The position numbers were made by a program, and so were the translations under genes. A stretch of 24,000 nt of DNA from Methanosarcinales archaeon (GTDB lineage Archaea > Halobacteriota > Methanosarcinia > Methanosarcinales > Methanocomedenaceae), in contig JACUTQ010000001.1 of the NCBI GenBank assembly GCA_014859725.1, positions 17,619 to 41,618 of the forward strand, read 5' to 3'. The notes beneath the pieces are model-generated. The model ran no database searches, was not told where the DNA came from, and was given only the letters and a program-made list of their open reading frames with translations. Positions 910-23,687 of the stretch are shown in pieces (the first letter of the stretch is position 1; every line of letters begins with the position of its first letter).

Positions 910-1965
910 TTATTTAGTGAACACAATATTTTTCACATCATGCAAAACAATATGGCATTTTTTGCATTCAGGATATAAATCATGGATTAACTTTTGATGC
1001 GGCAACCCATGGCAGGATTCGCATGTGGGTAAGTAACCATGTTTTGGATGGCAGTAAATACAATTCAGATCGTCATGTTTCGTATTGCTTGAACGTAACT
1101 CGGAATCAATAGCTTCATGACAAATTGCACAATCATTTCTTGTAATACTTGAGGGGATATTGATAACAGCCGGATCATGAGCAGGATGACATCCAAGACA
1201 TTCGCTATTTGTCATATCTGAAGCATGAGGGATATGACAATCCATGCATTCGGGGATCTGCTCATGGACGGGGTGACATTCTGAGCAACCTAAGGCTGTA
1301 TGTTTTGTGTTCCCCTGCTCCAGTACATCACTCACCACTTCATGACAGACAGCACAGTTTTCACCGGCAATACTTTCAGGGTAATCGATTTCCTGGGGCA
1401 TATGTGCCGGATGGCAGTTCAGGCATTCACTATATGCCATCCCCCTGGCGTGCGGCGCATGACAGTTGGTGCATACCTCGATCTGTCCATGGGTCTGGTG
1501 ACAGTAATTACATCTCAGATCAGCATGTCTACCCGGATTATCAAAGAACTCCTCAATTTGCCCGGGATGACAGAGGGAACAGGAGCTTTCTAAGTCTAGG
1601 CTTATTGTGATACTCATAGGAGCATGTTTATCATGACATTCCCTGCAATCTTGAAGCTGTGTGCCGTGGACAAGTTCATGGCAATCAGTACATTTTGGCT
1701 TTAGACCGTGCCGGATATGACAGAGGGTACAACCTTTATCGTGTCCCCTGCCTTCCTGTGATATGGAAGTGAACGCCTTGATATGGCATTCTCCACAGGT
1801 TTCATCGGAAACACTCAAATACTCAATAATCGGAGCGGCTGCCGCCGGAGGTGTTGCTTCTATTGGCATTAGTTCGGGTTCCTGGGGTGTGGATAAACAC
1901 CCGGACCCGATAATAATGAACAGTACAATGGCTACTCCAAACAATGCCTTCTTCATCATAATCAT
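910..1965 (-). CDS. 16-haem c-type cytochrome, predicted lipoprotein
   Basis: 16 CxxCH motifs by manual count, and every Cys after the lipobox sits in one. The internal ATG at 1965 gives MIMMKKALFGVAIVLFIIIGSGC, i.e. a signal peptide with a lipobox-like GSGC. About 9 motifs have the form CxxCHxxH. The track ORF extends to an ATG at 2046, but that would overlap the upstream gene by 47 nt and add a non-signal 27-aa leader. Confidence 0.9.
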   Translation of the reverse strand: MIMMKKALFGVAIVLFIIIGSGCLSTPQEPELMPIEATPPAAAAPIIEYLSVSDETCGECHIKAFTSISQEGRGHDKGCTLCHIRHGLKPKCTDCHELVHGTQLQDCRECHDKHAPMSITISLDLESSCSLCHPGQIEEFFDNPGRHADLRCNYCHQTHGQIEVCTNCHAPHARGMAYSECLNCHPAHMPQEIDYPESIAGENCAVCHEVVSDVLEQGNTKHTALGCSECHPVHEQIPECMDCHIPHASDMTNSECLGCHPAHDPAVINIPSSITRNDCAICHEAIDSELRSSNTKHDDLNCIYCHPKHGYLPTCESCHGLPHQKLIHDLYPECKKCHIVLHDVKNIVFTK

Positions 1966-1999: not shown

Positions 2000-4900
2000 T
2001 CATTTCTTATAACGAATCCCTTTCTTGAATATCTTTTGCTCACCATCTTTCATCTTCACAATGAATTCATCAGTTTTACCGCCATTTATATTCAGGTATA
2101 ACCTGGTTTTTTCATCGTTAAGTTCCAGAGTAAGATCATTTACATCAGTGGATACTTTTATGATCTTGCCGTCATCGATTTTTTCGATGTTGGCTGTTTT
2201 TGCCCAATCAATACCATAATTCTGTTCCAATTGTTCTAGGAGTTTTTCGCTATCGATTCCTGGAACTTCATTAAAGTTAAACAAATATCCACTCTTCCTT
2301 AGCAGAAGCATCAAACCAGCAAGACCTGCCCCGGTACCAATTACTATTAAAGTTATCGGCATAGATTCCTGTTCAGCTTCGGTTGGTATTTGTATCGAGA
2401 AAACGGCTTCATTCACAGGACCCCATTTATTGTCACGTTCCATTGCACGAATATATATGGTATGGTCACCTAGTTCAAGTCCGGTGGTATCAATGGTAAA
2501 TTCAACCTCTTCCACCTGCTCGTCGAATGTTCCATCCAGGGGCATAAGCTGCGTACCTGTACCTGGCGGACCTTCAACATCTATGAAATATTCTATTGTT
2601 TTCACTTTCATCTTCCAGCTGGACATGGCAGCAGCATTCACTGTCACTGTCTCCCCGAATGTGACGACCTCTGAAGACATATTGATCGAGACAATATAGG
2701 GTATGTCAGGTTCGAAAATATTGATCACATGGAGTCCGGGATAATCTGCTGCATGACACCGGTTGCAATCTTCAATCTGGCCGTGATTCTCGTCACTTAG
2801 ATCCACTGCACCATAGGTTGGCAATTCCATATATGTATGGCAATCCTGACACTGCCTGGGATACAGGTAATCAGCAGGATGCCGCTCAGGGTCAACTCCT
2901 TCTCCGTGGCAGGCCCAGCAAGCCTTATTGATATCATCGGTAAGGTTGACCTTGCTTGTTGCATTGGCATTGAGCTGGCTATGTCCGCCTAATCGGCTCT
3001 GTATCGCATCTACTGATGATATCCCAAACCCATTACTTACATCATGACATTTTACACAGTCGGACCCTCCATCCTTACCTTCGTTCAATGTTGGTACATG
3101 GAATGTATCAGGAGATCCACCTATGGAAAAGTTATCGTTAATATGGAGCTGACTGGTGTTATACCCTCCCACCTTCTCATCATCATCAATATCTGCTTCC
3201 ATAAGCCTGTCTGAAAAAACCCTGACCTCAGTAAGGCTCACAATGTCGGTATCAAATCCATGAAATACACTATCTACTTTAGCTGTTAAGATGACAAAAT
3301 CATCGATGTTATGATTTTCAGATGAAAGGTCATACTCAAATTCAATAATTTCTCCTACTCCGTATACACTATCCTCGATCACACTGCCGTCTTTGACCAG
3401 GGTTATATATGCTTGTTTACCATTAATATCCACTTCATTAGCTGTTAATATATAGTTCCCGTCAACATCCAGGGTCTGGTTATAACCTTCTATTAGCATA
3501 AGTTTTCTTGGCATAAGGGTCACCTTATCTTCGGTGTCCTCGTCTGAGAAGTCCAGTAATTTCTCCAGATAATATATGCGGTCTTCATCCTCATCCAGTA
3601 CAAGATATTTCTTCTTGTCAACAGTGTAGTCATCCATATGGCAGGCCCAGCAGGCAGGGTCTTTATCTTCGGGATGAATGCGTTTCCATGATCTTCCTTC
3701 CACCTTTACCAGGCCTATCTGCTCACCCCTGAATACCGCAGTAAAATTCAATTCAAGCACTACCAGGTCATATTCCATATCACCGTCCGGATTAATGAAA
3801 TCACCTTCATAGGTGAAGTTATTATCGGCAGATACCACTATTTCCTCAAGTATTGTATCATTGTGGTATAATCGCAGGAAAGCATTGTCACCATTAATAC
3901 CGATATCTTCAAATACAAGGAAGTACCGGTTGCCAAGGTGCCATTTATCGCCGACTAACAGTGTTATTTCCAGTTCTTCATCTGAAAGCCTGGATATGTT
4001 CGTCGTTGGATCAGGTGCATTACCCCATTCTTCTGCATTGTCCTCATCAAGGTGGCAGTAGATACAGCTTGTTGTATTTATCAGATCATCAGTGGAACCG
4101 TAATGGGATACCAGTGATGTGCTGGAAGGTATAATGTCATCATTGTTGCTCATTATACTGTTTAAGTGGCATGCTATACAGTCAACTGACGTACTTATAT
4201 TTTCGTCAATCTCATCAACATATCTGAAATGCTCGTATATCATTGGTTCATTGAAGATAGATTGATTAATGTTGTGGCAGTCCTTGTCAGCACAGTTTCT
4301 GGGATTATTATAATTAAGTGGATGACCACTTTCAAGCTGAGCTGCATCTGATCCATCACCATCGCCGTGACATGCCCAGCAGCGCACGTTATCTGAACTT
4401 CTATTTTCACTCAGTTCATTGGTAGCAGCTCTGTTAAGGTCATAGTGTATTGCATCTGATTTGTTCATAGCCTGAACGTCAATTTGGAATTCTGCTGGTA
4501 CGGATCCGCCTATATCATGACATTCTACACAATATTTTCCGCCACCTGCCGCTACTTTATGCACGAATTCAGTGGTTGTTGCGGTTGTGGAGAGTAGACT
4601 GCCATGACAACCTTTGCAAACGACATCGTTGTAGTTACTACTATTGATTGATGAGTGATTGTACCAGCCCTGACCTGTACCATCCCATGATGTACTGTTG
4701 TTTGTATTGTTGTTGAATATAGTCGGTGGAACCGGGGATCGTTTCGTGCCATTGTAGTAGGATGAACTGGAATTGTGACAGATAGAACACCAGTAACTAT
4801 TGCTGCTGACATCGAGACTGACATTGCGATCATTATCACCCTTTACACTGTCTATAAAACCTAATGCACTGGTATTGTGTTTGGTATCATTGTGGCAGAA

Positions 4901-7900
4901 CTCACAGGCTCCGTTGCTGTCATTCCAGTAGTTAGTCTCATTCCACCTGCTGCCGCTTGTGGGAGCTTCGCTGTGGCTGAATCCGTAATTCTCGTCAGGT
5001 ACTTTTGGTATTGTTACATTAATGTTAGTATCAACTGCACCTGATGAATGGCAGGTGTAACAGTCAACCGCACTGCTATTCGACGTGTTGTACGTGTCGT
5101 CCTGCTGCAGGTACTTGACGCCATGTATATCACGGGCTTCGGACAGGTGACATTCACTGCAGTTTAATGTGTTGTTGTGCCTGGCTTTAGGCGTGGTAAA
5201 TGACATATAGGTGCTGTAATTGGTAGAGTCATGACAGGAAAGACAGATAGCACTGTCTTCAGTACCATTGATCATCAGGTCGGGTTTTGTAAGACTGGCG
5301 TTATGCATCCAGCCGCCATTATGACAGGTCGCGTTTGTACAGTTCGGAGTGGAATCATATCGGCTGTGTCCGGATATGTTTGCATTGAAAGTTTTGTTAG
5401 TCATGATGCTGTCAATACCGAATTCGTTGCCTCCGTTCTGGTGACAGTAACTGCAGTTCACCCCTCCGGCCCAGATACGGAGATCGCTGGAGTCACCCAC
5501 AACACTTCGTTTCTTACCGTAGTGCGAGACCAGCGAATACCAGCCGGTACTGTTTATACCCTGGATCGGTGGAAGATTGGAAGTGACTTTCATCCCGGTG
5601 AGGTTATGGCAGTTCCTGCATGAGGTGAGATTATCTGAAGTATTACCTGCTTTGAGCTTGCTGGCCTGTGCAAAGTGCTGCACTACATCAGGGGCCCAGA
5701 CTAACACCGAGGCATTTACTGAACTGGATACGCCCACCATGTGGCATTCATCGCAGGTGAATGGATTGGGACCTGGCAAATTGTTATCTGAAGTCCTGAC
5801 CCGGTCAGCATGGTCGGTATAATTGCCTGGAGCGTTTGAATCGTTCATGTGGCAGAGCCAGCAGATCTTGTTGACATCTGAAGTGTTTGATGAATAGGGA
5901 TTGGATATTGCGGCATAGGTTCTGACATTGGAATGGATTGAAAAGGTACTGTTCAGGGCAGTGACATTGATACGGGGTGCAACATCGCTGGATATATCAT
6001 GGCACCAGGTACAGTTGGCACCGAAGGTACCTTCCGCCACCCGGTGCGGGAATTCTTTGGTGGTCTTTTCAACCAGTAATGAACCGTGACAGGGTCCGCA
6101 TGCATTGTCGTTATAAGAGATCAGGGAATGGTTATAATAATCAAGGGAGACACCCTGCCAGTTGGTACCATTGGTGATTTCGGGGGCTATACCTACCAGG
6201 CTGAAAGCGGCAATCATGGAATCGTAATTGGAATCGCCTTTGTAGTGGCAGCCCGAACACCAGGTGTCATCACCTATTGAAATGTTCTTGACATTACCGC
6301 TACTGATACTTGTGATACGGCCGAGAGCTGAAACAGAGTGTTTTGTGTCGTTGTGGCAGTATTCACAGGCTTCATTGGTATTGTTCCAGTATGAACCCAA
6401 AGTGACATTGGCCCACCTCAATCCATTATTAACCTGGCTGTGTGTGAAGTTGAAATCGGTCTGCATCGGTACCTTAGGACGGTCGGTTGCCGTGATGTTG
6501 GTGCTGAGGTTATTGGAAGCGTGGCAGTCCTGGCAGTTGACGGCAGAGATGTTGAAAGTACTGTACGTGTCGTCCTGCTGCAGGTACTTGACGCCATGTA
6601 TGTCACGGGCTTCGTACAGGTGACATTCGGTGCAGTTCAGTGTATCGTTGTGTCTATTTTTTAAACCTGTTATGGATGTGTATGTAGTATAATTACCTGG
6701 ACCGTGACAGTTCAGACAAACCTGACTGCTGGGCTCACCACCCGTATAATTAGTAGTTAGATCTGGTTTATCGAGACTTTCGCTATGCATCCATCCCTCG
6801 TTATGACAGTTTACAGATGTACAGTCAGGCGTCGTACTATTATAATGCAGACTGTGATTATTGATAGAACTATTTAATTCCGGATTTGACATGGCTACAT
6901 CAAAAGAAGTACTCTCGTTTTGGTGGCAGTAACTACAATTTACACTCTCGTTGGTACCGGTCCTAAGATTACCAGCACCGATACTGCGCTTCCTGCCGTA
7001 GTGGGCTATCAGGTAACTGGCATTGCTCTGATCCTCGGGGTCCGTGCCAGAAGGAATCGTGACATCAAGTTTCATCTCGCTCAGGTTGTGACAGATCTCG
7101 CAGGAACTGAGATTATCTGAAGTATTACCTGCTGTGAGCTTGCTGGCCTGTGCAAAGTGCTGCACTACATCAGGGGCCCGGACTAACACCGAGGCATTTA
7201 CTGAAGTGGATACGCCCACCAAGTGGCATTCATCACAGGTATAGACGGGGATGCCATTGAAATCGCCCAATCTGTCAGCATGGGCTTTCTTGTTTATTTT
7301 GTCTGTATACTGACTGTTGTTCATGTGGCAAGCCCAACATATCTTGTTGGTATCGTTTACATCATCTACGTCGGTTATGCTGTCATAGGTGCTGATATTC
7401 TGGTGTACAGAGAGTGAATTGTTCACTATACTGAAGTTGACCTTTGGGGATTGTTTACTTATGTCATGACAGCCGATACAGTCAGGACCCCCTGCCGGTT
7501 GTACATCGTGCCCGTGCCCACGGGAAAGTGGAAGTGCTAGTCCTGAGAACGGTTCAATGTTGCCCTTATGGCATGTATCCAGACACCGGGTGTTGTTTCC
7601 TTCGGCAACGAAAGAAGCATGAGCGTGGATTGTGGGACCCTCACTTGCACCAGTGAGAGAGTGGCATTTCGTGCAGTCCGGATTTGAGTTCCATGTGTGA
7701 ACCCCAAAACGATCTGTGATGTTTATTTTTAACGGGCCTGCAGTATAATCTATGGTAAAAATGACATTGGTGTGACACACGAGGCAACCAGTCTGATTCG
7801 TGGGCCTACTGCTTGTCGCATTCCATGTCATAGTCCTGTGAACGTTGTCATTTAGCATCATATCGCCATCTAAAACCACATTTAAATAGTTTTTTGGCAA

Positions 7901-9355
7901 ATTGAGCATTGGAAGCTGCTTTTTATGAAATTTTAATGAGGCAGAGAAATGGCAGTAATAGCATTTAATTCTTGTAACTTCGTGCGCACTTGGATATAAA
8001 CCAGTTACGTCATAAAGATTATGACATACGTTTGGACCGCACCCGCCATCTGCCTTCTCTTCATTAACAATTTTTGAATGACAATTGATGCAAACCTGAT
8101 TAGGATATGCCACTCTTGACAGGTTAGATGCTCCAGCCCATCCATCACCTGTGTTTGGGTTTGCATGTCTGGCATACATATCCCCACCGAAATCCGGACC
8201 TGGTGGATCAGTTCCAAAGCCAGTGCGGGTCGTTAACGTGTCCAGTTTGTGCGTCATATTCGAACCATACGGCGCTAGAGTGATATTGTCGTCCATCATG
8301 GCATAACCACCCGAAGCGTTTTCATATCCCTCCTGGATCTCAGCTGCGGTTTTTGTGTGGCATTCAGTGCACAGGGGCGATAACGTATTGCTATTACTGG
8401 ATGTGTTGTCAGTGCTATGGATCGTTGTTTTGACATTATAGGAACCTGTGTACAGTTTGGTTCCTGTGTATGTCAGGGTGTTATTGTTGTGACACTGAAG
8501 GCAGGACAATACCGGGAATTTATGTAATGTTGTATCCATTTCATCATGGCAGTTCTCACATCCTCCGGTCTCATTCCTATCAAGAGACTCATCGTGGATA
8601 CGCCCACCTGCATGGCAGCTCTGATTTGTGCAATTGATTACACTGCTGTGATTTTCCATGGGATCATTGGTGACAGAAAAATTAATGGAACTAAAAGCAA
8701 CTGAAGTGTTGTGGCAGTACATACAGTAGGCAGAAGTGTTGTTCAAGACAACAAGGTCATCTCTCTTTTTGCCGTAATGGGAAGACAATGATAATTTTGT
8801 GTAGTTGGTATCAGGTTCTGAATAATCAGCACGCTTCATCTCGGTCTGGTTATGACACTCAATACAGGATTCAGTTGCATTTGCAGCGGTAGTTACCGCC
8901 GCAATATTATCGCCGGATTTGAAATGTTCCTTTACCACTGGTGCGCTGCTGACATTTTCGTATGCAACCGTTCCGTTATGGCATTCGTAGCAATTGTAAG
9001 GATTTTTCTGCCTGTCAGGATGTGAATCAGGTTTGCTACCGTCACTCTGGTGGCAGCCCCAGCATATACTGTTGTTGGCATTGCCTTCACCGGCAGCAAT
9101 AGCATTCATGTTGTTGTTTAACTCGGCATGAATGTTATCGGACTGGTTCATGGCTGATACCGATACATTATATGATGATGTCTCATTTGCAACATCATGA
9201 CACCCTATACAATCAGGGCCACCCTCTGCTGCCGCACTGCCCGAAATCGAATATAGTAATAAAAATAAAATTAATATGATTATAAGATTATACTTGAACT
9301 TGGGACAAGACAACAAGTCAGCAAATTTTCGGTATGTTTTTGGCTTCATAATCAT
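2000..9355 (-). CDS. Giant (2,451 aa) multihaem c-type cytochrome with S-layer-like domain pair, Ig-like domain, C-terminal TM anchor and cytoplasmic tail
   Basis: Uninterrupted 7,356-nt ORF with an N-terminal signal-like segment (KPKTYRK + LIIILILFLLLYSISGSAAA). Manual count gives 43 CxxCH + 5 Cx4CH + 1 Cx3CH, and the only Cys outside these motifs is in the signal region. There are about 108 N-x-S/T sequons. TM helix is MPITLIVIGTGAGLAGLMLLL followed by RK. Confidence 0.95.
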   Translation of the reverse strand: MIMKPKTYRKFADLLSCPKFKYNLIIILILFLLLYSISGSAAAEGGPDCIGCHDVANETSSYNVSVSAMNQSDNIHAELNNNMNAIAAGEGNANNSICWGCHQSDGSKPDSHPDRQKNPYNCYECHNGTVAYENVSSAPVVKEHFKSGDNIAAVTTAANATESCIECHNQTEMKRADYSEPDTNYTKLSLSSHYGKKRDDLVVLNNTSAYCMYCHNTSVAFSSINFSVTNDPMENHSSVINCTNQSCHAGGRIHDESLDRNETGGCENCHDEMDTTLHKFPVLSCLQCHNNNTLTYTGTKLYTGSYNVKTTIHSTDNTSSNSNTLSPLCTECHTKTAAEIQEGYENASGGYAMMDDNITLAPYGSNMTHKLDTLTTRTGFGTDPPGPDFGGDMYARHANPNTGDGWAGASNLSRVAYPNQVCINCHSKIVNEEKADGGCGPNVCHNLYDVTGLYPSAHEVTRIKCYYCHFSASLKFHKKQLPMLNLPKNYLNVVLDGDMMLNDNVHRTMTWNATSSRPTNQTGCLVCHTNVIFTIDYTAGPLKINITDRFGVHTWNSNPDCTKCHSLTGASEGPTIHAHASFVAEGNNTRCLDTCHKGNIEPFSGLALPLSRGHGHDVQPAGGPDCIGCHDISKQSPKVNFSIVNNSLSVHQNISTYDSITDVDDVNDTNKICWACHMNNSQYTDKINKKAHADRLGDFNGIPVYTCDECHLVGVSTSVNASVLVRAPDVVQHFAQASKLTAGNTSDNLSSCEICHNLSEMKLDVTIPSGTDPEDQSNASYLIAHYGRKRSIGAGNLRTGTNESVNCSYCHQNESTSFDVAMSNPELNSSINNHSLHYNSTTPDCTSVNCHNEGWMHSESLDKPDLTTNYTGGEPSSQVCLNCHGPGNYTTYTSITGLKNRHNDTLNCTECHLYEARDIHGVKYLQQDDTYSTFNISAVNCQDCHASNNLSTNITATDRPKVPMQTDFNFTHSQVNNGLRWANVTLGSYWNNTNEACEYCHNDTKHSVSALGRITSISSGNVKNISIGDDTWCSGCHYKGDSNYDSMIAAFSLVGIAPEITNGTNWQGVSLDYYNHSLISYNDNACGPCHGSLLVEKTTKEFPHRVAEGTFGANCTWCHDISSDVAPRINVTALNSTFSIHSNVRTYAAISNPYSSNTSDVNKICWLCHMNDSNAPGNYTDHADRVRTSDNNLPGPNPFTCDECHMVGVSSSVNASVLVWAPDVVQHFAQASKLKAGNTSDNLTSCRNCHNLTGMKVTSNLPPIQGINSTGWYSLVSHYGKKRSVVGDSSDLRIWAGGVNCSYCHQNGGNEFGIDSIMTNKTFNANISGHSRYDSTPNCTNATCHNGGWMHNASLTKPDLMINGTEDSAICLSCHDSTNYSTYMSFTTPKARHNNTLNCSECHLSEARDIHGVKYLQQDDTYNTSNSSAVDCYTCHSSGAVDTNINVTIPKVPDENYGFSHSEAPTSGSRWNETNYWNDSNGACEFCHNDTKHNTSALGFIDSVKGDNDRNVSLDVSSNSYWCSICHNSSSSYYNGTKRSPVPPTIFNNNTNNSTSWDGTGQGWYNHSSINSSNYNDVVCKGCHGSLLSTTATTTEFVHKVAAGGGKYCVECHDIGGSVPAEFQIDVQAMNKSDAIHYDLNRAATNELSENRSSDNVRCWACHGDGDGSDAAQLESGHPLNYNNPRNCADKDCHNINQSIFNEPMIYEHFRYVDEIDENISTSVDCIACHLNSIMSNNDDIIPSSTSLVSHYGSTDDLINTTSCIYCHLDEDNAEEWGNAPDPTTNISRLSDEELEITLLVGDKWHLGNRYFLVFEDIGINGDNAFLRLYHNDTILEEIVVSADNNFTYEGDFINPDGDMEYDLVVLELNFTAVFRGEQIGLVKVEGRSWKRIHPEDKDPACWACHMDDYTVDKKKYLVLDEDEDRIYYLEKLLDFSDEDTEDKVTLMPRKLMLIEGYNQTLDVDGNYILTANEVDINGKQAYITLVKDGSVIEDSVYGVGEIIEFEYDLSSENHNIDDFVILTAKVDSVFHGFDTDIVSLTEVRVFSDRLMEADIDDDEKVGGYNTSQLHINDNFSIGGSPDTFHVPTLNEGKDGGSDCVKCHDVSNGFGISSVDAIQSRLGGHSQLNANATSKVNLTDDINKACWACHGEGVDPERHPADYLYPRQCQDCHTYMELPTYGAVDLSDENHGQIEDCNRCHAADYPGLHVINIFEPDIPYIVSINMSSEVVTFGETVTVNAAAMSSWKMKVKTIEYFIDVEGPPGTGTQLMPLDGTFDEQVEEVEFTIDTTGLELGDHTIYIRAMERDNKWGPVNEAVFSIQIPTEAEQESMPITLIVIGTGAGLAGLMLLLRKSGYLFNFNEVPGIDSEKLLEQLEQNYGIDWAKTANIEKIDDGKIIKVSTDVNDLTLELNDEKTRLYLNINGGKTDEFIVKMKDGEQKIFKKGIRYKK
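2003..2362 (-). other. C-terminal TM helix (2300-2362) + RK + 97-aa predicted cytoplasmic tail of unknown fold (2003-2293)
   Basis: A 21-residue hydrophobic stretch is followed by RK (positive-inside). The tail is SGYLFNFNEVPGIDSEKLLEQLEQNYGIDWAKTANIEKIDDGKIIKVSTDVNDLTLELNDEKTRLYLNINGGKTDEFIVKMKDGEQKIFKKGIRYKK. It has no Cys or His and no plausible internal start codon (its only Met is 14 residues from the C-terminus), so it is part of the same polypeptide. Confidence 0.7.
3215..3990 (-). other. Pair of ~100-aa beta-rich domains resembling the Methanosarcina S-layer duplication domain (DUF1608/TIGR01567-like), separated by an acidic linker carrying one CWACH haem site (3638-3652)
   Basis: Domain 1 is EITLLVGDKWHLGNRYFLVFEDIGINGDNAFLRLYHNDTILEEIVV...VKVEG. 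Domain 2 is LMLIEGYNQTLDVDGNYILTANEVDINGKQAYITLVKDGSVIEDSVYG...EVRVFS. The pattern 'G-x-x-Y-x-L ... D-(I/V)-(N/D)-G-x-x-A-(F/Y)-(L/I)-x-L-x-(K/H)-(D/N)-G/D' recurs in both. This is a recognition call from memory and no HMM was run. Confidence 0.6.
4532..6013 (-). repeat. Intragenic tandem module copy C (12 haem motifs, ~494 aa). Boundaries approximate.
   Basis: Starts at GANCTWCHDISS. The next module begins at KYCVECHDIGGS, 1,482 nt downstream. Copy C shares islands of about 96% nucleotide identity with copy B (5631-5740 vs 7113-7222; 5091-5155 vs 6564-6628). Confidence 0.85.
6014..7495 (-). repeat. Intragenic tandem module copy B (12 haem motifs, ~489 aa). Boundaries approximate.
   Basis: Starts at AGGPDCIGCHDISK. 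It is collinear with copy C motif for motif. The first-Cys to first-Cys distance to copy C is 1,467 nt. Confidence 0.85.
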
Positions 9356-20571: not shown

Positions 20572-21723
20572 TTAGCCGAATACTAATACTGATCTTGTTG
20601 TTCCCAGTACCAATTTGCTGGCATCCGGGATCATATCAAGGGAGACGAAGAACAATCCATATGCACTGTCAAGATGATATTTCGCTAATTCATTACCATC
20701 AAGGTCATACATTCTTAAGTCCCGATCCTCACTGATCACAATATACCTGGAATCTTCAGATATACCCAAGACCCCAACATCGGTCAATGATTTCTGCCAT
20801 TTTACGTTACCATTTTTGTCAAATAATTGGACCATATACACGAACGAGGGGATATTAGCCCTATTAACTGGTTTAGTGAGGATATAATCTCCACTTTCCG
20901 GGATCTCAATTTCGATAGTATCTACAGTTAGTTCCTTCACCCAGTTACTGTTGCCATATTGGTCATAAGAATGGAGCTTATTGTCTTCAGTAAGTGCATA
21001 CATCTTTTCACCGTTCTCAGACATTTTAATATCGATAACACTTGACCCCAGGTCCTTTGAATAAAGGTTTCTCAGATCATTACTTACATAATGTATCTTT
21101 CCTTCATAGGTCCCGATAAATAGATTTTTTCCATTGGCAGTATAATCAAATATCAAATTTTTTGCAGTTGATATTCCCAGATCCCAGTCCCACAATTCAG
21201 AACCTTTCTTATCAATTATTGATACATGTGGTTTTTTCTCGCTCGACTGGATTACATTACCATTTTCCAGTATAGCTATCTGGTGGACTATTCCGGTTGC
21301 ATCATATGATACAAGGCTATCTCCATTGGTATCATATAACCTGACAAAATTCTCATCAGCCACAGCTATGTATTCGCCTGAACTTGATAGTGAAATTAAT
21401 TTTCCGTTTTTCCAATATAGATTAGTTAATATGTTCTTTGTGGGTGTTTTTATTATAGCTTTATGAAGAGAAATTCCTCCATAATAATCTCCATTATCTG
21501 AAATAGTCACATCAAACGCTTTAAATCCAAGTTTATTTGTCCAGGATGGAGCATTTAGCATTTGGACTGGGTCAATTGTGGCTGAAACTGTAGGAGTTTC
21601 AGTCGGTTTTGGAGGGGAAGTCCCTGAAGGAGGGGGAGTTGATACTTCATACTGCTCTGCACATCCAGAAAAGCCAATGACTAAAATCGTTAGAATTATA
21701 CCATAAATAAATAATTTTTTCAT
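20572..21723 (-). CDS. Secreted lipoprotein with Pro/Thr linker and PQQ-like/WD-like beta-propeller repeats
   Basis: The N-terminus is MKKLFIYGIILTILVIGFSGC (signal + lipobox), followed by the linker STPPPSGTSPPKPTETPTVS. The motif (Y/F)DxxG(N/D/S)xxW recurs (YDTNGDSL, IDKKGSELW, YDQYGNSNW, FDKNGNVKW, YDLDGNEL). The ATG at 21723 is preferred over the TTG at 21747. Confidence 0.7.
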   Translation of the reverse strand: MKKLFIYGIILTILVIGFSGCAEQYEVSTPPPSGTSPPKPTETPTVSATIDPVQMLNAPSWTNKLGFKAFDVTISDNGDYYGGISLHKAIIKTPTKNILTNLYWKNGKLISLSSSGEYIAVADENFVRLYDTNGDSLVSYDATGIVHQIAILENGNVIQSSEKKPHVSIIDKKGSELWDWDLGISTAKNLIFDYTANGKNLFIGTYEGKIHYVSNDLRNLYSKDLGSSVIDIKMSENGEKMYALTEDNKLHSYDQYGNSNWVKELTVDTIEIEIPESGDYILTKPVNRANIPSFVYMVQLFDKNGNVKWQKSLTDVGVLGISEDSRYIVISEDRDLRMYDLDGNELAKYHLDSAYGLFFVSLDMIPDASKLVLGTTRSVLVFG

Positions 21724-21959
21724 GACTGCCACCTTATCAAAATACAAGAATATGTACCTCGGTAATATTATTGAACTCTTTAGTTATTATAGTTTACATA
21801 ACATATAATTTATGTGTATCAATTACCAAATATTTTCAAAAAGCTTTACCGTAACCAATATATAGAACCACAAACATGTGGAAAAACCCATAAATTATGA
21901 TTTATTACTGTAAAGTTTAATTACATGGTTTCAATTGAGACCGGCGGAGGAAGCGTTAG

Positions 21960-23687
21960 ATGTTGAAAGTTAAGAACCTGGTAAAGGACTATGATGTAGA
22001 TGATGCTAAGGTTAGAGTACTAAATGGTGTCAGTTTTGAGGTTAATGATGGTGATATATTAGGGATCATGGGACGAAGTGGTGGCGGAAAGACCACACTA
22101 ATGAAGGTGTTAAGAGGCGTTGAGAATTTTGTTGAAGGTGAGATCGAAATTGATGGACTTACCATTACCCCGGATTCTTCATTCCAGGATATTAGAGCAC
22201 TAAAAGATATAACTGCTATACATCTTCAAAGAAATTTTGGTCTCTGGACTGGTTCTGCAATTGAAAACATTATAAGACGTATATATTCTCTTAAAGTAGG
22301 GCAAGAAGCCCTTCCTCATAGGGATCACCCGGATTTTGATGTACTGTATGCCGAGAGTATGGAATATCTCAAACTAGTGGGCCTTGATCATAAGGCCGAA
22401 CATTTCTCATCTGTGCTCAGTGGTGGTGAAAAACAGAGATTATTGATAGCCCGGCAGATTGCTGCCAAACCCAAGCTTTTATTACTGGACGAACCCGCAA
22501 CCATGACCTGTCCCGCAACCAAACAGGAAGTGCTGGACACAATAAAAAAGGTTCATCAGGAAACCGGGATCATGACCATAGTTGTCTCACATCTCCCTGA
22601 GATACATGGTTATCTTGCAGACAAACTAATATTGCTCGAAGACGGTAAGATCGTGGCCCAGGGTGAACCAAAAACCATAATTAAAGAATTCCTTAAGGAC
22701 ATTCGACCCATAGTACCACTTCCTGACATAAAAGAAAAAATTCCTGTTATTAAGGTTGAAAATGTGAGTCAACGGTATTATTTGATACGCCAGGGAGAGG
22801 TACTGGATATTGAAGATATGAGCATTGAATTCAATAAAGGCGAGATCACTGCAATCATAGGACCCAGCGGCGGAGGTAAGACCACATTGCTTCATGCCAT
22901 GGACGGGCTCATTTATCCTGATGAAGGTGAGATAAGCTACCTGGTTGACAATGATTGGGTAGATATCACCATCTATAATCCCAGTCGAATGGAACTTCGC
23001 AGAAGGACCAGTATCATGTACCAGGAATTTGCGCTGTACCCTAATTCACCCATCAAGCATCAACTGGCATATAAACTGGGAGTTAAGGGTATGCACGTTA
23101 TAGAGAATGCCCGTAAAAAGGCAAAGGAATTGAGCATTCCTGATGAAGATCTTGATATTATTTACCGGTTGACAGATATTGGCGGAGAAAAAGCCCAGGA
23201 GCAACTGGAAGAGATGGGATATCAATTGGATATTATCAGCATCCTCTTCCCAAGTAGTACTATGGATGAGGTCAAGAAATATGCAGAACCGATCTTTGAA
23301 GCTATGTGGCTGCCCATATCTGCACTTAACGCAAAACCATACCAGTTAAGTGGTGGAGAAAATGTAAGGGCTGCACTGGCCCTGGCGACTATCACACAAC
23401 CTGAATATCTATTATTGGATGAACCATTCGGAGATCTGGACCCACGTACTTTGCGAGAGGTGGCCAATTCCCTTAAAAGGTTCAATGCACAGTTCAATAC
23501 TACCATTGTTTTCATTAGCCATCACATGGATTTTGTGAATGAACTGGCACATAGAGCTATCATGATCGAAAACGGTAAGATCACTATGGATGATGAACCC
23601 ATGGCCGTCACTAAAAAGCTGATAGAAGTGGGTCATGCCACGTATATGAAGCATGCATTGAAGGATTATTCAATAGTAACAAACTAA
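21960..23687 (+). CDS. atwA: Soluble tandem-ABC ATPase. Best guess is methyl-coenzyme M reductase activation component A2 family.
   Basis: Two ABC cassettes: GRSGGGKTTL / LSGGEKQR / LLLLDEP and GPSGGGKTTL / LSGGENVR / LLLDEPFGDLD. There is no adjacent permease gene. Segments such as IHLQRNFGLW and MYQEFALYP resemble A2 proteins. A GGAGG lies 10-14 nt upstream of the ATG. It lacks the Cys-rich insert I recall in some A2 homologues, so the family call is moderate. Confidence 0.55.
   Translation: MLKVKNLVKDYDVDDAKVRVLNGVSFEVNDGDILGIMGRSGGGKTTLMKVLRGVENFVEGEIEIDGLTITPDSSFQDIRALKDITAIHLQRNFGLWTGSAIENIIRRIYSLKVGQEALPHRDHPDFDVLYAESMEYLKLVGLDHKAEHFSSVLSGGEKQRLLIARQIAAKPKLLLLDEPATMTCPATKQEVLDTIKKVHQETGIMTIVVSHLPEIHGYLADKLILLEDGKIVAQGEPKTIIKEFLKDIRPIVPLPDIKEKIPVIKVENVSQRYYLIRQGEVLDIEDMSIEFNKGEITAIIGPSGGGKTTLLHAMDGLIYPDEGEISYLVDNDWVDITIYNPSRMELRRRTSIMYQEFALYPNSPIKHQLAYKLGVKGMHVIENARKKAKELSIPDEDLDIIYRLTDIGGEKAQEQLEEMGYQLDIISILFPSSTMDEVKKYAEPIFEAMWLPISALNAKPYQLSGGENVRAALALATITQPEYLLLDEPFGDLDPRTLREVANSLKRFNAQFNTTIVFISHHMDFVNELAHRAIMIENGKITMDDEPMAVTKKLIEVGHATYMKHALKDYSIVTN

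Follow-up and report, generated by a model that had tools for sequence, protein, structure and literature searches.

The window, by which is meant the whole 24-kb stretch of DNA analysed here, is from a methane-oxidizing (ANME-type) archaeon, an ANME-2/3-like member of the Methanosarcinales. Its minus strand carries a gene for a giant multihaem c-type cytochrome followed directly by a conserved partner gene, and the parts of the large protein were delimited by motif counts, profile searches, and hydropathy (Table 1). The remaining neighbours encode Elp3, FKBP-like, RPA-like, PheT, and Nre proteins together with a tandem ABC ATPase that is probably the putative MCR component A2. An origin from a mobile element or a Borg found no support, as neighbours such as Elp3, PheT, and Nre are housekeeping genes. 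No canonical S-layer gene of the host was found in the window.

Table 1. Features of the cytochrome locus in window coordinates
Feature	Position (nt)	Strand	Basis
Downstream 16-CxxCH cytochrome, lipoprotein-like signal, conserved partner gene	910..1965	-	ORF; Pfam Cytochrom_c3_2 and C7
Giant multihaem c-type cytochrome gene, ANME MHC-A type	2000..9355	-	ORF list, translation; 2451 aa
Cytoplasmic tail, predicted (aa 2353-2451)	2003..2299	-	Composition: without Cys, His, or sequons
C-terminal transmembrane helix, predicted (aa 2334-2352)	2300..2356	-	Hydropathy peak 2.26
Ig-like spacer domain (aa ~2229-2301), weak assignment	2453..2671	-	PF17957 Big_7, E 0.0035, 18.4 bits, below cutoff of 24.1
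Inner tetrahaem unit (aa 2096-2201)	2753..3070	-	CxxCH at 2100, 2146, 2169, 2197
Invariant His2086 (TFHVP), candidate distal haem ligand, module inner face	3098..3100	-	69/69 modules, with P2082; invariant in A1
Second beta-sandwich and C-terminal tail (aa 1950-2085), C-type DUF1608	3101..3508	-	PF07752, 50.9 bits, profile positions 117-220
Beta-hairpin and acidic stretch (aa 1914-1943)	3527..3616	-	Aligns with last N-type strands and acidic N-to-C linker of DUF1608
Haem loop (aa 1891-1910)	3626..3685	-	Invariant His1894 (nt 3674-3676) and CWACH (aa 1902-1906, nt 3638-3652)
First beta-sandwich (aa 1790-1890)	3686..3988	-	PF07752, 48 bits, profile positions 106-201
Outer haem-rich region (aa 49-1768)	4052..9211	-	38 CxxCH and 6 CX3-4CH; ~490-aa repeats; N-glycosylation sequon-rich
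Hydrophobic signal or anchor segment, N-terminal (aa 24-42)	9230..9286	-	Hydropathy peak 2.51

By motif count, the cytochrome contains 43 CxxCH and 6 CX3-4CH sites. The Pfam families matched were MtrC/MtrF_II-IV (148 bits), Cytochrome_C7 (125 bits), and S-layer (84 bits); the cytochrome families exceeded their own cutoffs, and the protein has more than 10 haem-binding motifs. The outer region is internally repetitive. A self-BLAST of the whole protein returned the identity hit only, and the repeats, at 50 to 54% identity, emerged when the protein was cut into 250-aa pieces. N-x-S/T sequons in the outer region numbered 98, against 35.8 ± 5.4 in shuffled controls, with a density of 5.6 per 100 aa in the outer part that fell to 2.3, then 1.3, and to 0 in the tail. 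The initial annotation had placed 4 inner and ~44 outer haem sites on the two sides of an S-layer-like stretch, and this partition was borne out, with 4 CxxCH on the C-terminal side and the remaining canonical and variant sites of the outer region on the other. The inner tetrahaem unit was conserved in 41 to 43 of 43 homologues and was homologous to aa 1605-1730, just outside the module (35% identity, E 1.9e-11). The transmembrane helix that would anchor the cytochrome was called by a hydropathy scan rather than by a dedicated predictor, and a helix occurs at the matching position in the relatives L001 and L009. The ANME-3 orthologue also has the tail beyond this helix; L009, at 96% identity, lacks it.

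Anatomy and family of the S-layer-like module

The range first annotated as S-layer-like, nt 3215-3990, corresponds to aa ~1790-2047 of the ORF at 2000-9355. The elements described there were present at those positions, but the range stopped short of the end of the second sandwich, whose tail extends to aa 2085 (nt 3101). Two haem-free segments had been said to share a common pattern. They are homologous: the Smith-Waterman score was 81 compared with 33 ± 6.3 for shuffled sequences, none of 1,000 shuffles reached 81, and profile-profile comparison gave a probability of 99.3% (E 4.5e-20, 91 columns). Exactly one CxxCH lies between them, as reported.

Assignment to the S-layer domain family was supported. 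The whole module scored 84.3 bits against PF07752 (cutoff, 30), and each segment alone scored 48 to 51 bits. In two Foldseek searches the only matches at E≤1e-3 were the MA0829 DUF1608 structures 3u2g and 3u2h (1.2e-7 and 1.1e-6, probability 1.0), and the objection that the domains might belong to a different fold family therefore found nothing in the structural comparison. A search of PDB sequences with phmmer matched the second sandwich alone, to residues 115-243 of the 3u2g chain (E 2.6e-4); the first sandwich needed profile methods.

Both segments mapped to profile positions ~101-220 of 259, whereas the canonical proteins P0148 and P0182 cover positions 12-259. With hhalign, the first sandwich matched canonical DUF1608 C subdomains with a probability of 99.4% (E 3e-21) and N subdomains with 0.1%, while the second matched C subdomains with 99.8% (E 1e-28 to 8e-30); over both segments the values were 99.4 to 99.8% for the C subdomain and 0.1 to 0.2% for the N subdomain. 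On these profile comparisons, both sandwiches are assigned to the C-terminal subdomain type of DUF1608, with the N-terminal type absent. A remnant of the N-type subdomain was sought with the connector alone (aa 1886-1956) and with the stretches before and after the module, and all gave probabilities below 1%. Only the extended alignment of the module to the full domain reached the end of the N-type subdomain, over its last ~20 residues.

The ~60-aa connector between the sandwiches consists of an invariant KRIH...CxxCH, then a hairpin, then an acidic stretch. When the module was aligned with complete canonical DUF1608 by hhalign, the alignment extended through GAKYFVVTN-TSTWRISEKLFDEDDNDD, and the acidic stretch after the haem site aligns with the canonical inter-subdomain linker. 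The strongly acidic stretch of the initial annotation is present, but its first half (aa 1915-1935) is a confidently predicted beta-hairpin rather than a disordered linker, with AlphaFold2 (AF2) strands at aa 1915-1922 and 1926-1935 (pLDDT ~87-89). Strands of the first sandwich were modelled at pLDDT 70 to 90. The net charge of the module is -44, in line with the negatively charged S-layer of Methanosarcina (PMC5744192).

Comparison with the MA0829 tile protein (tandem DUF1608; MSTP family) makes both the kinship and its limits apparent. The sandwiches resemble its C subdomain, the acidic linker is shared, and both proteins are strongly acidic. Canonical tile proteins such as P0148 and P0182, however, are haem-free, have the order N1-C1-N2-C2, measure ~650 to 730 aa, and end in PGF-CTERM, whereas the module has the order C sandwich, haem loop with hairpin, C sandwich, and includes no N-type subdomain. 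Pfam gave no PGF-CTERM match in the 2451-aa cytochrome, which has a single module and no tandem full domain and whose anchor is, by hydropathy, the transmembrane helix. Global superposition on 3u2g was poor (TM 0.32 to 0.38, rmsd 15 to 20 Å), indicating that the sandwich-sandwich arrangement differs from that of MA0829 or is poorly modelled. Against the NCBIfam duplication domain TIGR01567 the module scored 65.9, below the cutoff of 121.9. The proposal that the protein is an S-layer subunit mimic therefore holds as domain kinship but not as full mimicry; with the N-type subdomain absent and the score below the TIGR01567 cutoff, all of the tile-protomer contacts cannot be assumed. Furthermore, DUF1608-type domains number 13 to 44 per Methanosarcinales genome (PMC5244752, Table 2), and because they are so numerous in the surface proteins of this order, the domain alone is no proof of residence in the lattice.

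Spacing and conservation of the isolated haem site

The linker haem site is separated from its nearest motifs by 138 aa on the upstream side (C1764) and by 198 aa on the downstream side (C2100). As the sparse spacing described initially would require, no other gap in the protein is as long, all the rest spanning 19 to 93 aa. Similar distances around the isolated haem were found in MHC-A and MHC-B-like relatives, at ~131 to 137 aa upstream and 183 to 198 aa downstream.

The linker CxxCH was kept in 43/43 close homologues, with C1902, C1905, H1906, and H1894 invariant. Across 69 modules with a median identity of 29%, the only invariant positions were H1894, C1902, C1905, H1906, P2082, and H2086. 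In each of the 70 multihaem proteins that matched the module over its full length, exactly one CxxCH lay within the module, and the motif was naturally absent from 105 CxxCH-free DUF1608 matches (3 full-length and 102 partial). In aa 1720-2230, seven conserved non-motif His residues accompany seven CxxCH motifs, and from this pattern of conservation His1894 and His2086 are likely axial ligands.

Relatives of the cytochrome

The cytochrome is a member of the established ANME MHC-A class and has the ~2400-aa form described for ANME-3 and reported from Methanovorans (bioRxiv 10.1101/2024.05.23.595608). It shares with ANME MHC-A the haem sites starting from the N terminus, an S-layer domain whose connector carries one haem motif, and a transmembrane helix near the C terminus. 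The orthologue L001 from "Ca. Methanovorans" (ANME-3) HMMV is of nearly the same size (2453 aa, 43 CxxCH) and was 65% identical along the last 730 aa (query residues 1-730); it also has the downstream 16-haem gene. Closer matches were public fragments, L009 at 95 to 96% and P0001 at 79%. The 16-haem gene directly follows the MHC gene in L001 to L004, L007, and L009, while in "Ca. Methanocomedens" (ANME-2a; L005 and L006) the MHC-A protein, of ~1370 aa, is fused to this partner via two transmembrane helices.

MHC-B proteins likewise have the S-layer module, with one haem motif standing alone, and a transmembrane helix near the C terminus; L015 (haems at 1178/1309/1492) and L016 were 33 to 34% identical. 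They differ in that their N-terminal ~480 aa, described as peptidase M6-like, contain no haem site and that CcmF2 is a neighbour. An MHC-B identity was rejected, as haem sites begin already at aa 49, with no haem-free N-terminal region, Pfam gave no peptidase M6-like domain, and no CcmF is encoded in the window. MHC-C was rejected for want of a pectin-lyase match in Pfam. A word-indexed search with an 851-aa C-terminal query found 50 proteins; the same kind of search with the 330-aa module alone found nothing, which reflects the sensitivity limit and not absence of relatives.

Proposed electron passage through the S-layer

The module is probably best explained as the S-layer-related part of an ANME MHC-A-type cytochrome that would provide an electron path through the S-layer, a reading drawn from sequence. 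The cytochrome would be exported and held in the cytoplasmic membrane by its C-terminal helix, with the inner tetrahaem unit and the Ig-like spacer under the S-layer. Homotypic contacts with tile proteins would hold the two sandwiches in or at the lattice, and the sequon-rich N-terminal part with its ~44 haems would lie outside. The linker haem may be bis-His ligated, by H1906 and either H1894 or H2086, and electrons from methane oxidation would pass to extracellular acceptors or to a syntrophic partner. Insertion into the lattice with a bridging linker haem, as initially proposed, agrees with the predicted topology and with a haem site that is conserved without exception among the compared modules. 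It is exactly the hypothesis published for ANME MHC-A/B by Chadwick et al. (2022, PLoS Biol; PMC9012536); that paper already describes the architecture, the in-plane position of the single haem, and the conduit model. Counting against the conduit explanation, MHC-A/B-type genes were transcribed at low levels in ANME-2c cultures (PMC9012536).

The same authors drew an analogy to MtrCAB (PMC9012536), whose proposed function is alike in that electrons pass through the outermost cell layer via a chain of haems; the haem domains of the present protein match the MtrC/MtrF domain II/IV family PF22113 (148 bits). In MtrCAB and other Gram-negative conduits a beta-barrel porin sheathes a decahaem cytochrome in the outer membrane. 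The archaeal host has no outer membrane. The present cytochrome would, in contrast, have no porin: the insulating layer is a protein lattice, the crossing element appears fused into the cytochrome itself, and the window contains no gene for a porin-like protein. The resemblance is functional only.

If the module does not cross the lattice, it could be a docking or anchoring device, its sandwiches binding tiles from below or lining a lattice pore while the haem relay runs beside the lattice. This is unlikely, despite the poor fit to 3u2g, the lack of an N-type subdomain and of the tandem full-DUF1608 layout, and the lack of the PGF-CTERM found in P0148 and P0182. The module is the only haem-poor stretch of the protein, and its haem site and two flanking His are invariant, as expected for a crossing at this point; moreover, with ~44 haem sites N-terminal to it and the membrane anchor C-terminal, the polypeptide must cross the layer.

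A lesser chance still attaches to a generic beta-sandwich spacer that has no specific link to the S-layer and whose CxxCH is one more haem of the wire. The abundance of DUF1608-type domains in Methanosarcinales genomes speaks for it, as do the 990 proteins recovered in the profile search at E≤1e-3, of very varied lengths and repeat numbers. The strict order of C sandwich, one haem, hairpin, acidic linker, and C sandwich is nevertheless kept in ANME-2a, -2c, -2d, and -3 at 24 to 30% identity, always between tetrahaem units and always with most of the haems on one side and the membrane anchor on the other, and so strictly conserved a layout argues for a specific positional role. Least probable of all is that the linker CxxCH binds no haem, serving instead as a metal, disulfide, or regulatory site in an insulating break. 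The two large gaps and the low confidence of the modelled haem loop (pLDDT <50 to 60, AF2) would suit such a site, but both Cys and the His of the motif are invariant, the two extra His fit a count of seven candidate distal ligands for seven motifs, the model places the motif in a short helix as in c-type sites, and 42 further canonical sites are present in this c-type cytochrome, which is predicted to be exported.

Within the preferred reading of a path through the S-layer, what is added here to the published model is a finer anatomy: both sandwiches are C-type, the haem loop comes with the invariant His1894 and His2086, and the canonical acidic linker is retained. The literature describes the module as a DUF1608 domain with a haem in a flexible linker (PMC9012536). 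Since the acidic stretch corresponds to the linker between canonical subdomains, the module resembles the C1-N2-C2 part of a tandem-DUF1608 tile. A tentative proposal, more doubtful than the conduit itself, is that it is a remodelled form of this unit, in which N2 has shrunk to its last hairpin plus a bis-His haem loop of ~25 aa and the cytochrome chain has taken the place of N1. The sequence-level part of this proposal is well supported by the alignments, while its consequence for the lattice is speculative. If it is true, one cytochrome would take up the space that the two C-type sandwiches fill in a whole tile protomer, and a haem would stand at the place of N2, which would give a concrete, dockable geometry for electron passage across the lattice.

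The way in which electrons leave an archaeal cell through an insulating S-layer during anaerobic methane oxidation has a bearing on the marine methane sink and on bioelectrochemistry, and as a clear example of the proposed conduit the protein is biologically important. The finer anatomy singles out residues for mutation and a piece to dock into the MA0829 lattice.

Anatomy and fold of the S-layer-like module

The two haem-free segments of the giant cytochrome (aa 1790 to 1890 and 1950 to 2085) were found to be related, with a Smith-Waterman score of 81 against 33 ± 6.3 in 1,000 shuffles, none of which reached 81, and with family profiles that matched each other at 99.3% probability (E 4.5e-20). 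Together with the coordinates, these results confirmed the initial annotation's pair of related segments with a single CxxCH in the linker. The family PF07752 (S-layer protein, DUF1608) scored 84.3 bits for the whole cytochrome (cutoff 30) and 48 and 50.9 bits for the segments singly, and the sole PDB match by sequence was the Methanosarcina acetivorans S-layer tile protein MA0829 (3u2g/3u2h; E 2.6e-4). AlphaFold2 models were made of aa 1720 to 2230 (pLDDT 67.6) and aa 1785 to 2095 (pLDDT 75.5, pTM 0.53); either contained two confident beta-sandwiches (pLDDT 70 to 92) and a haem loop of low confidence. Foldseek returned 3u2g and 3u2h alone from the PDB at E≤1e-3 (1.2e-7 and 1.1e-6). The earlier assignment to the S-layer family therefore held against a different fold family. 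Superposition on 3u2g/3u2h gave low TM-scores of 0.32 to 0.38 (rmsd 15 to 20 Å); therefore, the placement of one sandwich relative to the other is either unlike that in the crystal structure or unreliably modelled.

For comparison with canonical tile proteins, 16 haem-free proteins of ~650 to 730 aa with the layout N1-C1-N2-C2 were taken from the profile search. Two of the 16 were scanned, and both matched PF07752 across nearly the full profile and carried PGF-CTERM. Canonical N-type and C-type subdomains showed no significant similarity to each other (profile-profile probability 0.2 to 0.3%). Both cytochrome segments matched the C-type subdomain, the first at 99.4% (E 3e-21) and the second at 99.8% (E 1e-28 to 8e-30), and neither matched the N-type significantly (0.1 to 0.2%). 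Either segment covered profile positions ~101 to 220 of 259, with Pfam and NCBIfam concordant, and the module scored 65.9 bits with TIGR01567, below its cutoff of 121.9. In an alignment of the whole module with a single complete canonical domain, the second region of similarity began upstream of the sandwich. There, KKKYLVLDEDEDRIYYLEKLLDFSDEDTED paired with GAKYFVVTN-TSTWRISEKLFDEDDNDD, a stretch of the canonical domain made up of the last part of the N-type subdomain and the acidic N-to-C linker.

From the subdomain comparisons and this extended alignment, the module order reads as a C-type sandwich, a haem loop (KRIH...CxxCH), a hairpin assigned as a remnant of the N-type subdomain, the canonical acidic linker and a second C-type sandwich. 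This departs in detail from Chadwick et al. 2022 (PMC9012536), in which the haem motif lies in a flexible linker joining two DUF1608 subdomains. The tandem pair of S-layer domains first proposed is likewise not the literal anatomy, but as the module's two sandwiches are the counterparts of C1 and C2 in a tile protomer, that reading is nearer than it first appears. The module carries a net charge of -44; the Methanosarcina S-layer is also negatively charged (PMC5744192).

Haem spacing, conserved histidines and proposed conduction

In total, 43 CxxCH, five CX4CH and one CX3CH motifs were counted in the cytochrome. The CxxCH motifs nearest to C1902 were at C1764, 138 aa upstream, and C2100, 198 aa downstream; these are the two widest CxxCH intervals of the protein, the others spanning 19 to 93 aa. 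With variant motifs included, 44 haem sites lie N-terminal and 4 C-terminal of the module, in agreement with the earlier estimate of ~44 outer and 4 inner sites. The six variant motifs fall at aa 242, 439, 591, 845, 1339 and 1688, the last almost invariant among homologues. Chadwick et al. (PMC9012536) raised the possibility that modified motifs of this kind explain why specialised CcmF paralogues exist.

The linker CxxCH was kept in 43/43 aligned homologues, and the two motifs before it and four after it in 41 to 43 of 43. A search of 1.84 billion representative proteins with the module profile gave 990 matches at E≤1e-3; 191 sequences were examined, drawn from these plus 50 proteins of a prior homologue search. 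Full-length module matches numbered 73, of which 3 lacked any CxxCH and 70 were multihaem, all 70 with exactly one CxxCH inside the module. Subdomain-only matches numbered 113 (102 without CxxCH, the other 11 mostly truncated cytochromes). Among the 191, the linker haem motif was never found in a protein lacking other haem motifs. In 69 modules with a median identity of 29% to the present one, the only invariant residues were H1894, C1902, C1905, H1906, P2082 and H2086. The region aa 1720 to 2230 holds seven CxxCH and seven conserved non-motif histidines. We infer from these sequence patterns that all seven haems would be bis-His ligated, with H1894 and H2086 as probable ligands of the linker haem and one neighbouring haem.

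The feature is real, well conserved and biologically important, but both observation and interpretation have been published; what is new is limited to the C - haem loop/hairpin - linker - C anatomy and the two invariant histidines. Architecture, conservation and topology are shown, whereas the mechanism is a proposed one and was put forward by Chadwick et al. in 2022 (PMC9012536); PMC5244752 likewise mentions MHC/S-layer fusions. The C terminus would anchor the cytochrome in the membrane, and electrons would enter at the inner tetrahaem unit in the space beneath the S-layer. The two sandwiches would sit in or at the lattice, held by tile-protein contacts, the layer would be crossed via haems 1764, 1902 and 2100, and the ~44-haem outer part would hand electrons to partners or minerals. 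The literature searched yielded no study that tested the conduit model structurally or biochemically.

Class, relatives and remaining regions of the cytochrome

Haem sites begin at aa 49, the peptidase-like haem-free N terminus and pectin-lyase domain are absent, and no CcmF neighbour occurs among the genes within the window. The cytochrome is therefore classified, by sequence, as MHC-A in the scheme of Chadwick et al. 2022. Within this class it is the ~2400-aa form, which has been described in Methanovorans and in a single Methanocomedens genome (10.1101/2024.05.23.595608). With the C-terminal 851 aa as query, 45 proteins were found to pair PF07752 with cytochrome domains; they belong to archaea of the ANME-2 cluster and to Ca. 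Methanoperedens. When a species-representative genome collection was queried with the C-terminal 732 aa (aa 1720 to 2451), the best matches listed were a 5.4-kb MAG contig (L009; aa 283 to 635 of the query, 95% aa and 96% nt identity), Ca. Methanovorans (ANME-3) HMMV (L001; 65%), Methanosarcinaceae MAGs (L002 to L004; 64%) and Ca. Methanocomedens (ANME-2a; L005; 63%). The ANME-3 orthologue is of the same size (2453 aa from stop to stop), likewise has 43 CxxCH, and is followed directly, as here, by a separate gene for a 16-haem cytochrome, whereas in Ca. Methanocomedens a cytochrome of ~1370 aa is fused via two TM helices to the downstream cytochrome. Contigs L009 and L016 (DATKUV010000212.1 and DATKUV010000168.1) belong to one MAG labelled 'Candidatus Nanoarchaeia archaeon SMAG_U14116', and the label or binning is probably wrong for these contigs. 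This MAG, in which the closest public relative of the locus lies, also encodes an MHC-B-like 2109-aa cytochrome.

The haem-rich part is composed of ~490-aa repeats. A recent internal duplication spans aa 622 to 1600, where an ~11-haem unit occurs in two copies of 50 to 54% identity (aa 622 to 1110 and 1112 to 1600); this probably accounts for an MHC-A double the length of ~1200 aa that is typical. The tetrahaem unit at aa 1605 to 1730, outside the module, and the inner unit at aa 2096 to 2201 are 35% identical (E 1.9e-11) and thus homologous, so that the module has like units on both sides. Past the inner unit lie a weakly Ig-like stretch, a TM helix (aa 2334 to 2352) and a tail of 99 aa that contains neither Cys nor His and gave no match in the domain-family scan. 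Contig L009 lacks 268 nt (at L009:~1107), most of the tail (aa ~2370 to 2451); the predicted cytoplasmic tail is kept in the ANME-3 orthologue. The outer part contained 98 N-x-S/T sequons against 35.8 ± 5.4 in composition-preserving shuffles, and density fell towards the membrane (module 2.3, inner part 1.3, tail 0 per 100 aa). Such enrichment suggests that the exposed cytochrome is heavily N-glycosylated, and the gradient would fit an outer part that is exposed and glycosylated and a tail that lies in the cytoplasm.

Neighbouring genes

Coordinates of features in the window
Feature	Position (nt)	Strand	Remarks
ORF	282-761	minus	159 aa
16-CxxCH cytochrome	910-1965	minus	directly downstream of giant cytochrome; lipoprotein-like signal (…IIIGSGC)
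Segment absent from L009	1980-2247
Giant multihaem cytochrome	2000-9355	minus	2451 aa; encloses module
Linker motif CWACH	3638-3652		aa 1902-1906, exact
Sequon-enriched outer part	4052-9211	minus	aa 44-1784
Duplicated ~11-haem unit	4555-7490	minus
Variant haem motifs	~8612-8632, 8021-8041, 7568-7585, 6803-6823, 5321-5341, 4274-4294	minus	five CX4CH, one CX3CH
Predicted lipoprotein	20572-21747	minus	391 aa
Tandem ABC ATPase	21960-23687

The listed start of the 16-CxxCH cytochrome, at 2046, overlaps the giant cytochrome gene; the likely start is Met28 at nt 1965. ANME-3 HMMV and several Methanosarcinaceae MAGs also have this cytochrome as its own gene, whereas in Ca. Methanocomedens the downstream cytochrome carries 12 motifs within the MHC fusion. 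The other neighbours encode Elp3, RPA-like, Dus-like, Nre, PCMT and PheT proteins and a tandem ABC ATPase, probably MCR component A2; as these are housekeeping genes, the locus is chromosomal. The 159-aa ORF matched an InsA-type zinc ribbon weakly (PF03811, E 3.4e-4; its 20.7 bits fall short of the cutoff, 26.1) and is a possible IS remnant where the cytochrome gene pair ends. In nt 1 to 1000, GC content drops to 33.5%. The predicted lipoprotein has beta-propeller (PQQ_2/DUF5711-like) repeats, and its gene adjoins that of the tandem ABC ATPase.
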